From UHGV virus genome UHGV-1734115: a stretch of DNA of 14,013 bases; one strand, given 5' to 3'. The DNA is from a virus. Position numbers: made by a program. Positions 6,001 through 12,000 of the stretch are shown piece by piece; the first letter of the stretch is position 1, and every line of letters begins with the position of its first letter.

Positions 6001-9000
6001 GTGAATTTAGTCTGGATAGCCATAAGTGTTTTATCCATTTTTGGGAACTCCTGGCTGATTAAGTATGTCGATAAGGCGTTTCCATCCATCACGTAATTTA
6101 CGTGTGATTCGTTCAAGTAAAGATTCGGAAGGGCAGCCAGCAACAGGCCACCCTGCAATGGCATATTGCATGGTGTGCTCCTTATTTATACATAACGAAA
6201 ACGCCTCGAATGAAGCGTTATTGGTATGCATATAAAAAAGCCCTCACATTGGAGGGCAAAGAAGATTTCCAATAATCAGAACAAGTCGGCTCCTGTTTAG
6301 TTACGAGCGACATTGCTCCGTGTATTCACTCGTTGGAATGAATACACAGTGCAGTGTTTATTCTGTTGTTTATGCCAAAAATAAAGGCCACCATTAGGCA
6401 GCCTTGTTGTTCTGTTTACCAAGTTCTCTGGCAATCATTGCCGTCGTTCGTATTGCCCATTTATCGACATATTTCCCATCTTCCATTACAGGAAACATTT
6501 CTTCAGGCTTAACCATGCATTCCGATTGCAGCTTGCATCCATTGCATCGCTTGAATTGTCCACACCATTGATTTTTATCAATAGTCGTAGTCATACGGAT
6601 AGTCCTGGTATTGTTCCATCACATCCTGAGGATGCTCTTCGAACTCTTCAAATTCTTCTTCCATATATCACCTTAAATAGTGGATTGCGGTAGTAAAGAT
6701 TGTGCCTGTCTTTTAACCACATCAGGCTCGGTGGTTCTCGTGTACCCCTACAGCGAGAAATCGGATAAACTCTATTCACCCCTACAGAGAGCAAAAGAGA
6801 AACGCCGATGAACAACTCATGGTGGCAGGAACTAATGCATTTTTTCCTGCAAGGAATGACACTTAAACAGTTGATTCATATGCTAATCATCCTGATCATA
6901 TTGATTATTGTTATGCCGGTAAGCGTAAAAGAATGGATAAACCTGCATAATCCAGAAATCCTTCCTTATTATTGGATGTATTACATCCTGTTGTTCTGCG
7001 TTAGCTATGTGCTTAACGGTGTTGTTAATTCCGCTTATCACGCTGTGACTGAAAGAATTGAGGTATCCGCTGCTCAGAAGCGCAAATCTAAAGAAGAAAA
7101 ATATGTGCAAGATTTGTTTGATTCGTTAACTCTTGGAGAAAGAGCGTATTTGGCATTCGCTGTAGCCGCGAATAACCAGCTAAAGACAGAAAAGGGAAGC
7201 CCTGAAGCAATCTCATTGCTCGAAAAAGGGCTTCTTATTCGGATACCTTCTGCTACTGGATATCCTGAAATCGACCGTTTTGTTATCCCGGAACGCTATA
7301 GAAATGAGTGCTACATTCGGTTTGCCGGGAAGGCAGACAGCCTTATGGATGAACTTATCGCTCAGGATAAGCATGGCAAAAACAAGTAATTAGCAAATGA
7401 ATTTATCATCTCGCCGTCAGTTGTTTTGATTTCCGGTAGCCTGCCGCGTAAAGAGCTACGTTCGGAAGACAAGTTGAACCTTCATATTTTCTGGTCAACG
7501 TTGTCAGAGTTATCACTTCTGCTCTCATTGCTGGTTTGCGCTTGCATTGCAAGACCACTCGTGAAGGGGTTGGCCTGTGTAGCTTGTCGGAGCTGATCGC
7601 CTCCTGACTTTGCAGATTTGCGCGACGCTCTCTACGGCGAGAAGCTGCGGTTCCTTTAAATTCTGTTTTTCTGGACATGGATTCCTCCCGAATAAACTCT
7701 GGCGATGCAATCCCGAAGCTACTCCTGAGAGAGTTGCTTCGGCATTGCATCCCACAGCTTATGTGGTTGGGTGATCTGGCTTTTCAGCCACGTAGTCGAG
7801 TGTTCGACGTTGTTTAAAGAGCCTGCCAGTCTGTTCCGTTTGGCTTACAGCGTCCTGCTGATGAGTTAACTTTATCGAAATGATAAATTAATGGCAATAG
7901 CAAAATGATAAATTGTTTTAGTTTTCAAATATCCTGTTGATTATTATGGTTTTTTATTTGATTGCAGGAATTTATCAGAAGGAATAAAGAGACTTGAGGG
8001 GGATCAGAATTGCGCGTTTTAGTGAGTTGTATCTGTTTATTTTTCAACAAATACAATTGGTTATGGTGTTATTAGGTGTGGGGATCGTGAGGCAAAGAAA
8101 ACCCGGCACTGAGGCCGGGTGTGTATTAGGGGGTTGAGACTCCAGAGAGCAATCCGTAGATTTTATATACAGTAAATGCTAATGCTGGCAAGCCAAGGGC
8201 CCATTTGATTATATCAAGCTTAACATCACTAAGCTTACCTTCTAACTTTGCCTCTTGAACAGAAAGAGCTGCATCGATCTTTTTTGATTGGGAGTCAAGG
8301 GCACTCTCAATTCTACTCGATTGTATGTCCAGACGACTGTTGATTTGTTCGTGCTGAGTAACAACTAAATGCTTCATCTCCTTTATATCTGAAGCCATTA
8401 GTTCACGCCATTTGGCCATATCAGCCTGCATTTTTGAGGCCACTGCATCCACTTCAGCTTTATTTGCCTTCAGAAGTGCCTGTATTTCGTTTCTGCTCAA
8501 ATCGGACATTGCGGTTCCCTGTATAGGAGTTTCCTCGTACGGTGGGATAACATTAGATTGTCCTTTACAATCGGCAACCCCTCCTTTATCTACGATTGTA
8601 GCAGTTAGCTGGGAATTGGTCGCATCATCCACCATGTTTTTTGGTGAATAAGAGGAAATAGGCGTAGAAAACAGATTACCTTTTGCTGTTTCCATGAACA
8701 TCATGAAATCGCGAGTATTAACGTTATTCAGGGAAACTTGCAGTGGTTTAACAATACTTGATGTTTTGTAAGTAATAGTTAAATCACCTACTTCTTCCGG
8801 TTGTTGCATTACGACTTCGCTCCATTAGAGTTTTGTGCCTCTAATTGTTCGAAAAGAAGAACTATATTCTCTTGAAGAGCCTTTAGTTGTGCCATTGGCA
8901 TTATCACAGTGCATTGCTGATTGAGTTCATTTACAGAGCCTATCTGCATATTCGCTCTACCTGGTTGATCTGGTATATCATTTTGGGATAGTACCGCAGG

Positions 9001-12000
9001 TATTGACTTGTTTGCGATAAAATGTATACAAATGAGATTTTTTTCCGCTCCCGGTAGTGGAGCAAAACTAGCGAAGTCCGCATAGGTTTCAATATAATCC
9101 ACAGATGGTTTAATTTTGACCGGTTCCATAACGCCTCTCATCAAATATTGTAGGTTTTTTAATTCAATGTGTTAAATGTTGGTGGTGTGTTATTTAAAGT
9201 TATTTTGACATCCTCCACGCCCTGAAGGACGGGGCTTGTCGCGTACTTGAAGTCACAAACTTTTCAGCCACTCCCTTGCCTCGATGTCATCCAGATGACG
9301 AGATTGCTTCAGAATACCAGCCACATACTCCACCTTTGCTACTTGATGATAAGGTAACGTTATTGGCCTGTGGTCCTGGTTGATGCTTGTAAATTGGTAT
9401 TCTCCATCTCTGTCATAGCCAAGAATCTTGATCATGTTGTGTCCTTCAACGGTTCTGACAAACACCTCATCCCCCGGGAATACTTTGGTGTTAGGCTCAA
9501 TGAGTACATATTCTCCTGATTTTATTCTAGGCCACATGCTGTCTCCTTTCACACGAAGACCAAAGGCATCTGGATCATCGCTATAAATCTTGAGCCACCC
9601 ATCGCGCTCTTCGGTCATCTCGATGGCACCATCAACACCAAGAATTGCCTCACCAACCACGCGCACTAACCCTTTTCTTACCTGACCGACAAAAGTTAAA
9701 GAATCTGAGCATGATGCAATTGGTGTTACATCATGTACCAAATCAAGCCACCCATTAGGTAACCCAAGTGCGGCTTCGAATTTTCTTGCTAGTTTATCCC
9801 CTATGTTTCGAGTGCTTTTTTCACCGGAGACTTGCGTGAGTTGAGAAGGGCTAACTCCAAGCTTATCGGCAAAGCTTGCATTAGTGTTACCCGCGATTTT
9901 TTTATGCTCATCTAGCAAAAACGCCAGATTCGATTTGCGAATATCTTTGTTTTCCATCCCACGATTCTCCCTCTATTTAGCAAATGGATAAATACGCATT
10001 TTGATAAATCTCCATTGCAGTTTATTTATCAAAATGGTAAAGTTGCTCTGTGTGATAAACGGAGGCACTAATGAGTAATGAACTACTACGCTGGCGAAAA
10101 GAGGCTTCTAGTGAGGAATGGAAGCGACTCGCCGCATTAGCGAATACTTCAGTTGGCTATCTTGATCAGATTGCATATGGGTTTCGAAGAGCTTCCCCAG
10201 ATAAAGCGAATGCAATCGAAGAAGCCACTCGTAATTTCACGGGTTATAAACCTGTGAAAAAGGAAAATCTGGTGTTCGTATCGCGTAGAGCATCAGCAGC
10301 ATAAGTAACCCCGCTCTTTGTAACAACGGACATTCGTCCTACGTCGCTGAAAAGCGAATCCCAGAATATCTGACCAACCAAGGCCATATGCGTTTCCACG
10401 CATACCTTTCAACTAGCTATTCACTATTGGAAATCATAAGAAATGGAACAAACAAGTTACAGCAAACTATCCCAGCGTGACGTTGATCGCGCAGAAACAG
10501 ATTTACTCATCAACCTGTCAACGCTTACCCAGCGCGGTCTGGCAAAGATGATTGGCTGTCATGAATCGAAGATAAGCAGAACGGACTGGAGATTTATTGC
10601 TTCAGTCTTGTGTGCTTTCGGAATGGCATCAGACATCAGTCCGATTAGTAGGGCTTTTAAGTATGCGCTTGATGGAATCACAAAGAAAAAATCCCCGGTG
10701 GCCGCCGGGGACTCTAAGCAAATTGATATGCAATTCTGAGGGAATTACTGGATCAATCCACAGGAGTAATTATGACAAAACGTCGTAAGAAATACCAGGA
10801 AAAAGAAGAGATTCGACACCCTGATTCACCTGAGGGATTAGTGGTAGCCGCAGCAAATAACAGGGCGTTCGCAGAGCGCCTTGTTGGTGTTTACAGACTA
10901 GCCAAAGCAGGAGTGAAGCATGGGCGTCGTTAAGTTAGCTGATTACAGGCATAACCCTGTACAACATCAGGAGGCATCCAGTATGGGGTATGTCTCTATA
11001 CACCGCCAGTTTATGGACAGCAGGCTCTATAAGGACTCTCAGGCAGTACATCTTTGGCTTCACTTAATCCTCAAGGCTAATCACGAATCTACTGTCGTCA
11101 ATACGGATATCGGGCCGATAACTGTTGATCGCGGTCAGATGATAACTGGACGCCCGTCGCTGGTCAGAGAAACATTCATCCCCGACAACAAAGTTCGGAG
11201 CTTATTACGGACTTTTGAGTCGAAAGGGATGCTTAATATTTGCTCGATGGGGAAGAAATTTAGCCTGTTTACAATCGTTAAATATGACGATTTTCAGGCA
11301 AAAAATTGTCCAACGGTTGTCCAACGGTTGTCCAACGCAAACACCAGTAATGGCGCGGCTCTCAGCGGAGATTGTCCAACGGTTGTCCAACGGTTGTCCA
11401 TAAACAATAATATAAATAATATCTCTAATACTGACGTATTAGAGAGTGCCACAGCAGACAAAAAGTCTGACAAGAAAAAACCTTCCGTCAGCTGTCAGGA
11501 TGTTGTCGATGCTTACCACGAAATCCTTCCTGAAGCGCCAAGAATCCGCGCACTGAATGACAAGCGTAAAAACCAGATCCGAACGTTCTGGCGCAAAGCC
11601 GGAGTAATAACACGCCAACTTGACGGGCATGGGTTCACGATGCAGGACTGGAGAAATTATTTGAGCTACGTTGGCGAAAATTGCCGATGGATGTTCGAAG
11701 AGCGCCCAAACCATCAACGCGGAACCGTCTGGCACAAAAAGGGATTTGATTTCCTGCTTAACGATAATACCTACCTGAAAGTTCGTGAGGGTGAACACGA
11801 TGACCGATAATTTTTATGCGCCGCCCCATAGCATCGAGGCAGAGCAGGCGGTGATTGGTGGATTGCTTCTGGATGATGACAGCAGTGAGCGCGTCCAGAA
11901 AGTTCTGGCGATGCTGAAGCCTGATTCATTTTACAGCCGACCACACAAAATCCTTTTCGAAGAAATAACCAGAATGCACCGGGAGCAAAAGCCAGTAGAT

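Follow-up and report, generated by a model that had tools for sequence, protein, structure and literature searches.

We analysed a 14,013-nucleotide stretch of the virus genome UHGV-1734115 (hereafter the window), and found that its segment from the early promoter pL to the gene cro very probably forms the lysis-lysogeny (immunity) switch of a lambdoid prophage whose immunity is of the H-19B type. Our results support the view that the repeated 17-bp sites in this segment are operators for the repressor CI and for Cro, and that they overlap the divergent early promoters pL and pR. The operator-promoter system of this immunity type has already been characterised, and the observation is real but ordinary. 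The gene order, namely N, pL with the left operators (OL), a two-gene insert, cI, the right operators (OR), cro, cII and replication genes with a DnaB-type helicase, is that of a lambdoid early region (Table 1). The divergent cI and cro genes flank a multi-site OR, and a second operator cluster lies at pL upstream of N. CI ends in the S24 domain expected of an SOS-inducible repressor (Pfam Peptidase_S24), for which cleavage is predicted.

Repeated sites at the early promoters and their identity to H-19B

A preliminary description of the window, made from the sequence letters, had proposed twin promoters pL and pR that share an operator half-site. Direct reading of the sequence returned both promoters: on the minus strand, from 7897 to 7869, TTGCCA, the 17-bp spacer TTAATTTATCATTTCGA and TAAAGT; and on the plus strand, from 10015 to 10043, TTGCAG, the 17-bp spacer TTTATTTATCAAAATGG and TAAAGT, with TTTATC present inside each spacer. 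The four full-length 17-mers of that description were also found in place, that is TTTATCGAAATGATAAA at 7871-7887, in which the half-sites are perfectly palindromic, TTTATCAAAATGGTAAA at 10025-10041, TTTAGCAAATGGATAAA at 9976-9992 and TTGCTCTGTGTGATAAA at 10043-10059. A fifth copy, placed at 7905-7913, is present (ATGATAAAT), but it is merely the right half of a full site, AATAGCAAAATGATAAA at 7896-7912. Both -10 hexamers do read TAAAGT, although this likeness, which had been listed as a character of its own, is no independent feature: each -10 takes its first four bases from the outer TAAA of the half-site G(A/C)TAAA. In relatives, the -10 hexamer is TAAACT at pR and either TAAATT or TAAAGT at pL.

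The sites are far more frequent than expected by chance. A motif search of the window for TTTATC-N5-GATAAA with at most one mismatch returned three sites against 0.06 expected, all of them in the two regulatory regions, and none of 500 dinucleotide shuffles of the window reached three. Eight of the 25 GATAAA/TTTATC hexamers fall inside the 244 bp of these two regions, which make up 1.7% of the window (binomial P = 7e-9). The regions are AT-rich (76% and 64%, compared with 54% for the whole window), and when only they were shuffled, the four half-sites seen in each stood against 0.16-0.29 expected (0/5000 shuffles), while near-perfect 17-mers gave P <= 0.005. A consensus promoter scan matched pL at 9 of 12 positions.

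The segment from pL to cro is about 95% identical to H-19B, BP-4795, ST2-8624 and mEp506, except for the genes between cI and OL, and it also matches many Stx1a phages; BP-4795, ST2-8624, mEp506 and these Stx1a phages share the immunity type. An identical copy of 7800-10100 is found in Escherichia coli 702/18, and 1145 of 5426 complete E. coli genomes contain partial matches. CI of the window differs from CI of H-19B (AAD04644) only by I178V and L234S, both in the C-terminal part, and the DNA-binding domains are therefore identical; the Cro proteins differ by N25K and A48R. Given this identical DNA-binding domain and a Cro only two residues off, the window is assigned to the H-19B immunity type, and a lysogen would be expected to be homoimmune with H-19B on the basis of the identical domain and the conserved operators.

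The operator reading is further supported by a GenBank record of ST2-8624, GQ499358 ('immunity region; similar to bacteriophage H19-B'), which annotates repressor sites OL1-3 and OR0-3 that map to the window as listed in Table 1. Four of the five copies in the preliminary description coincide exactly with OL1, OR3, OR1 and OR0, and the fifth is half of OL2. Its authors had cautioned that the operator model might be incomplete, and rightly so: OR2 and OL3 were missed, and OL2 was given only by half. The irregular spacing that they remarked on at OR is real as well and is explained by the number of sites, since a review states that H-19B has four operator sites in OR (PMC8065619, citing Shi & Friedman 2001).

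Table 1. Features of the immunity region and its surroundings (window coordinates; PWM, position weight matrix)
Feature	Position	Strand	Sequence or placement	Evidence and remarks
sieB	6808-7389	+
N antiterminator gene	7406-7750	-	first gene of pL transcript	Pfam N_peptide E = 1e-32
pL	7869-7897	-	-35 TTGCCA 7897-7892, 17-bp spacer, -10 TAAAGT 7874-7869	predicted +1 A7862
OL1	7871-7887		TTTATCGAAATGATAAA; overlaps pL spacer and -10	zero mismatches; GQ499358 OL1; top PWM match, 21.0 bits
OL2	7896-7912		AATAGCAAAATGATAAA; overlaps pL -35	GQ499358 OL2; PWM 18.8 bits; +25 from OL1 in every locus
OL3 (weak site)	7928-7944		AATATCCTGTTGATTAT	four mismatches to consensus; GQ499358 OL3
Isolated extended half-site	7969-7977		AATTTATCA	9/9 mirror of TGATAAATT in OL1 and OL2; annotated nowhere
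Two-gene insert, rexAB position	8126-9144	-	between cI and OL; outside the switch	open reading frames
cI repressor, 234 aa	9253-9957	-	helix-turn-helix (HTH) N-terminal domain and S24 self-cleaving C-terminal domain	Pfam Peptidase_S24 E = 4e-16
Predicted PRM	9964-9992	-	-35 TTTATC 9992-9987 (inside OR3), 17-bp spacer, -10 GAGAAT 9969-9964	predicted +1 A9957 of cI ATG
OR3	9976-9992		TTTAGCAAATGGATAAA; overlaps PRM spacer and -35	GQ499358 OR3; half-site information 1.86 bits
OR2, comparative register	9992-10008		ATACGCATTTTGATAAA (ATACGC-N5-GATAAA); centre -43 from cI ATG	half-site information 1.75 bits
OR2, GenBank register	10000-10016		TTTGATAAATCTCCATT	GQ499358 coordinates mapped to the window
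pR	10015-10043	+	-35 TTGCAG 10015-10020, 17-bp spacer, -10 TAAAGT 10038-10043	predicted +1 ~10050
OR1	10025-10041		TTTATCAAAATGGTAAA; overlaps pR spacer and -10	GQ499358 OR1; PWM 18.6 bits; half-site information 1.82 bits
OR0	10043-10059		TTGCTCTGTGTGATAAA; over pR start site	'OR0 repressor binding site' in GQ499358; 8.4 bits
cro, 77 aa	10071-10304	+	first gene of pR transcript	2/77 residues differ from H-19B cro
cII	10443-10739		after cro	Pfam Phage_CII E = 2e-31

Comparison with H-19B itself showed no change in any half-site of OL1, OL2, OR1 or OR3, in the GATAAA of OR2 or in the right half of OR0; the pL and pR hexamers stand in the same places, and both phages have four OR sites. The two sequences differ by 11 substitutions in OR and 9 in OL, none of them in the strong half-sites; single changes fall in the right half of OL3, the left half of OR0 and the right part of the annotated OR2, where a near-palindrome of H-19B is broken in the window. 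The pR -35 is TTGCGG in H-19B and TTGCAG in the window. When the window, H-19B and mEp506 were compared, 13 positions varied in the 113-bp cI-cro spacer, all of them among the 78 positions outside the OR1-3 half-sites and none among the 35 within (Fisher P = 0.006). At OL, the differences among close relatives fall between sites or in central spacers, save one in the weak OL3. In the window, the pR -35 is straddled by a perfect 13-nt inverted repeat (9997-10009 and 10024-10036, CATTTTGATAAAT and ATTTATCAAAATG), which is absent from H-19B, where 9999 and 10001 differ.

OL1 and OL2 lie on pL, and OR1 and OR0 on pR, with the promoters placed by consensus and conservation. In the proposed mechanism, a CI dimer would bind the 17-bp sites TTTA(T/G)C-N5-G(A/C)TAAA. 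Occupied OL1 and OL2 would cover the -10, spacer and -35 of pL and thereby block transcription of N, with OL3 placed further upstream; OR1, over the spacer and -10 of pR, and OR0, over its start, would block transcription of cro and cII. OR2, centred at about -43 from the cI start, could activate the weak divergent promoter PRM, as OR2 of lambda does, and OR3, over the -35 and spacer of PRM, would turn PRM off at high levels of CI or Cro. Repression would be released by RecA-stimulated self-cleavage of the S24 C-terminal domain of CI.

Much of this layout is shared with lambda, including divergent cI and cro, 17-bp dyad operators, three of them at OL, OL1 and OR1 overlapping the -10 and spacer of the early promoters, the S24 C-terminal domain of CI, an OR2 centred at about -42 or -43, and an accessory gene pair between cI and OL. 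The predicted pL start lies 7 nt past the -10 and coincides, by homology, with the pL start of lambda, which we take to be the corresponding A in the shared block GCGTCCTGCTGAT. In contrast, the operator sequence of lambda (TATCACCGC...) is unrelated to TTTATC-N5-GATAAA, and the window has a fourth site, OR0, over the pR start. The C-terminal domain of CI is of the 933W/H-19B type, unlike that of lambda. Phage 933W (Tyler, Mills & Friedman 2004; Koudelka et al. 2004) resembles the window in being lambdoid with a non-canonical operator number, three OR sites and only two OL sites according to a review (PMC8065619), and its repressor C-terminal domain is reported in a review to be shared with H-19B; its N-terminal domain and operator sequence are different.

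Next to the OL cluster, about 90 bp beyond OL1, stands an isolated extended half-site at 7969-7977, with a PWM score of 11.1 bits, at the background limit. H-19B carries GGATAAATA near this position, in the opposite orientation. The half-site of the window may be an additional weak site or a chance occurrence in AT-rich DNA, and a full site at 7971-7987 was considered as an extra OL site and not adopted, given its score at the background limit and the different orientation in H-19B.

Family layout, the position of OR2 and the predicted promoter PRM

To place these sites in a wider family, we collected more distant relatives by a Cro scan, which gave 16 prophage loci (Cro 57-77% identical); the Klebsiella phage vB_Kpn_Chronis is a further relative. 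The prophages come from Pantoea, Hafnia, Erwinia, Rahnella, Biostraticola, Sodalis, Enterobacter, Phytobacter, Atlantibacter, Citrobacter and Photorhabdus. One order and spacing of sites is common to all. On the right side, the cI ATG is followed by 19 bp, OR3, OR2 (starting 16 bp from the start of OR3), the -35 TTGc, OR1 (starting 32-33 bp after the start of OR2) and the -10 TAAAsT. On the left side, OL1 is a perfect palindrome in all 19 loci, OL2 lies at +25 overlapping the -35, OL3 follows at about +58, and the positions of the pL -35 and -10 relative to OL1 and OL2 are kept in 19 loci. A site equivalent to OL3 is found in most relatives, as TTTAGC-N5-GATTTA or ATTATC-N5-GATTAA. The half-site columns at OR hold 1.75-1.86 bits, where the intergenic mean is 1.13, and the central 5 bp show dips; at pR the TTG of the -35 and the T-A-A-A-x-T of the -10 are invariant at fixed spacing in 16/16 non-redundant loci. 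A PWM built only from the five most distant loci of the GATAAA class ranked OL1, OL2, OR1, OR3 and then 9992-10008 as the top five 17-mers of the 14-kb window.

The position of OR2 is the point at which this comparison departs from the annotation. In the GenBank register (OR2 at 10000-10016), successive OR centres are separated by 24, 25 and 18 bp; the comparative register (9992-10008), in which OR2 abuts OR3, gives 16, 33 and 18 bp, the 33 bp between OR2 and OR1 standing against 24 in lambda. We favour the comparative register as the most likely one, judged by conservation. Its half-sites hold 1.75 bits compared with 1.14 for the annotated register, it starts exactly 16 bp from the OR3 start in 20/20 loci, and its right half toggles between GATAAA and GCTAAA in step with OR1 and OL1 across loci. 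Moreover, its centre lies at -43 from the predicted PRM start, compared with -42 in lambda, where OR2 spans -34 to -50 from the PRM +1.

The alternative, that OR2 lies at 10000-10016 as in GQ499358 and that some other role, such as being part of the PRM upstream region, explains the conservation of the ATAyGC block at 9992-9997, is in our estimate unlikely, though it deserves serious weight. Its spacing of 24 and 25 bp is close to the 23 and 24 bp of lambda, it reaches 2 bp into the pR -35, as the lambda site does, and the corresponding H-19B stretch ATGATAAATTTACAT is a near-palindrome; moreover, the GenBank annotation may derive from footprints. By the same token, the comparative register is 8 bp off GQ499358, lies away from the pR -35, and shares one base pair with OR3 at a centre distance of 16 bp, an arrangement that may be sterically awkward. 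On the other hand, the right half of 10000-10016 is poorly conserved in the family (0.88 bits) and holds two of the 11 OR differences between the window and H-19B, at 10010 and 10012, which wreck the near-palindrome although the CI DNA-binding domains are identical. As to the spacing, the repressor of 933W binds non-cooperatively according to a review (PMC3202840), where the same is presumed for H-19B, whose repressor has a C-terminal domain in common with it; if H-19B is like 933W in this respect, there would be less need for a lambda-like spacing. We retain 9992-10008 as the favoured position of OR2.

The geometry also fits control of PRM by OR2 and OR3, with a -10 at 9964-9969, an OR2 centred at -43 in the disputed comparative register, and OR3 over the -35 and spacer. 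A hexamer of the form xAxxAT lies 6 nt upstream of the cI ATG, with the A, A and T invariant and the other positions variable in 16/16 non-redundant loci, and the -10 of the lambda PRM is likewise 6 nt from the cI ATG. The PRM transcript of lambda is leaderless. From the conserved hexamer, we predict that the PRM transcript of the window is also leaderless and starts at the cI AUG. A PRM with a leader and a Shine-Dalgarno sequence was considered, since the window has AGGGAG 9 nt before the ATG. Relatives do not keep AGGGAG at a usable distance, however, and we preferred the conserved -10 at 6 nt. Near cro and cII, a search for a lambda-type cII-dependent PRE motif (TTGC-N6-TTGC) found none.

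Half-site classes, a natural exchange and the weight of the evidence

Across Enterobacterales, the half-sites of the family fall into two classes, GATAAA and GCTAAA, which are one base apart, and each locus carries the same class at OL1, OL2, OR1 and OR2, except for one mixed locus (L008). The GCTAAA relatives, which include vB_Kpn_Chronis and prophages of Pantoea, Enterobacter, Citrobacter and Sodalis, share with the window the site order, the spacing, the placement of the -35 and -10 and the OR3 sequence, and differ from it in having GCTAAA/TTTAGC at OL1, OL2, OR1 and OR2, a different CI helix and no OR0. In GATAAA loci, the CI recognition helix reads S/A-Q-L, whereas in GCTAAA loci it reads A/T/M-L or Q-F. 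The recognition helix of Cro, GYLDQIAYG, is invariant, and the hybrid OR3, TTTAGC-N5-GATAAA, is nearly constant. The helices were placed by a PDB sequence search, used only for this purpose, which returned weak relatives of CI and Cro (8co2 and 8c7k for Cro); Pfam gave no HTH match for the CI N-terminal domain or Cro at E < 0.01. Taken jointly, a functional OR2 at 9992-10008 and two specificity classes set by CI helix residues 39-40, with Cro and OR3 held constant, form a tentative proposal that we regard as somewhat less than even in its prospects.

The constancy of the Cro helix and of OR3, the site that Cro would be expected to prefer, could also suggest that the sites are chiefly Cro operators and that CI recognises a different or larger element. 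We consider this highly improbable, since the half-site class follows the CI helix and not that of Cro, and the sites cover pL, which only CI can keep repressed in a lysogen. It is also established that CI and Cro of lambdoid switches bind a common set of operators.

A locus of E. coli 50579417 (NZ_CP033884) resembles the window in its N leader, its two-gene insert and its CI C-terminal domain (95%), while its CI N-terminal domain and cro are different and GATAAA sites are absent from its OL and OR. Aligned over 1500-3750 against 7800-10070, the two represent a natural exchange of the immunity module, with one joint in the inter-domain linker of cI and the other just past the conserved GCGTCCTGCTGATG at the pL start. 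That the repeats are a by-product of AT-rich promoter DNA (UP elements or -10-like sequences) or sites for nucleoid proteins is barely credible: the regions are AT-rich and the TAAA motifs do resemble -10 elements, but the excess survives shuffling of those very regions, the sites show dyad symmetry around a constant N5 spacer, the A-to-C change of the half-site is concerted at OL and OR along with the CI recognition helix, the sites vanish where an otherwise 95% identical backbone carries another CI N-terminal domain and another cro, and GenBank annotates them as repressor binding sites.

Several points weigh against the reading of the sites as CI/Cro operators at pL and pR. The consensus promoter scan did not pick up pR, whose -35 TTGCAG matches at 3/6 positions; we retained pR on the family-wide invariance of TTG-17-TAAAxT. 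OR0 and OL3 score within the background of the PWM, OR0 with 8.4 bits at rank 13, where background matches reach 11, and OR0 is kept only in the H-19B clade (0.43 bits across the family), so that its status draws on the GQ499358 annotation and the review. More generally, the proposed binding of repressor to these sites is taken from another laboratory's GenBank annotation and one review sentence. A search for published text giving the H-19B site sequences found none, and the definitions are known through GQ499358, KU238070 and that sentence. The precision of the annotation is limited: KU238070, which describes the same phage ST2-8624, sets oR1-3 two to three bp further left (3978-4043, compared with 2616-2699 in GQ499358) and lists neither OR0 nor OL1-3. 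Finally, few independent lineages stand behind the co-variation of half-site and CI helix.

Neighbouring modules and implications for H-19B-type switches

The insert between cI and OL (8126-9175, minus strand) is self-contained: a strong promoter-like site of its own (TTAACA-17-TACAAT) stands at 9175-9147, and a terminator follows at 8120-8101. Its first open reading frame (106-111 aa) has no family match, and the second encodes a 227-aa protein that has a hydrophobic helix at its C-terminus as well as a coiled coil, matching phrog_14825 (function unknown) and, weakly, CCDC90-like proteins; PADLOC and PHROGs searches identified neither gene and gave no informative family match. The genes at this position differ from those of H-19B, which, like BP-4795, has a HigB-like toxin-antitoxin pair there, while mEp506 has HicABC. 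The slot between cI and OL appears to be a variable accessory or defence locus.

Downstream of the switch, the replication module (10920-13236, plus strand) encodes a 296-aa initiator-like protein followed by a DnaB-type helicase (P22-like), where H-19B instead has O and P; left of the pL start, the N/nutL module likewise differs from that of H-19B. Because these two modules are unlike H-19B, the prophage is, on gene content, a mosaic that shares only its immunity module with H-19B. Two Rfam elements scored above their gathering scores, namely the lambda cIII thermoregulator element at 6126-6184 (minus strand, 88.5 bits) and sRNA-Xcc1 at 779-868 (minus strand, 62.9 bits).

Immunity regions of the H-19B type govern the induction of many Stx1 and some Stx2 prophages, and their operators therefore bear on toxin expression. 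To this type, whose operators and early promoters are already mapped and annotated in GenBank, the window adds only one more presumably homoimmune prophage. The family alignment gives an operator definition, TTTAKC-N5-GMTAAA, and offers further comparative leads, namely a proposed correction of the OR2 position, the prediction of a leaderless PRM transcript, and a candidate one-residue/one-base specificity switch for studying how new immunities evolve. If OR2 does lie at 9992-10008, binding at one of OR2 and OR3 might exclude binding at the other, or the two might be bound on opposite helix faces, and the switch would rest on intrinsic affinities rather than on pairwise cooperativity in the style of lambda.

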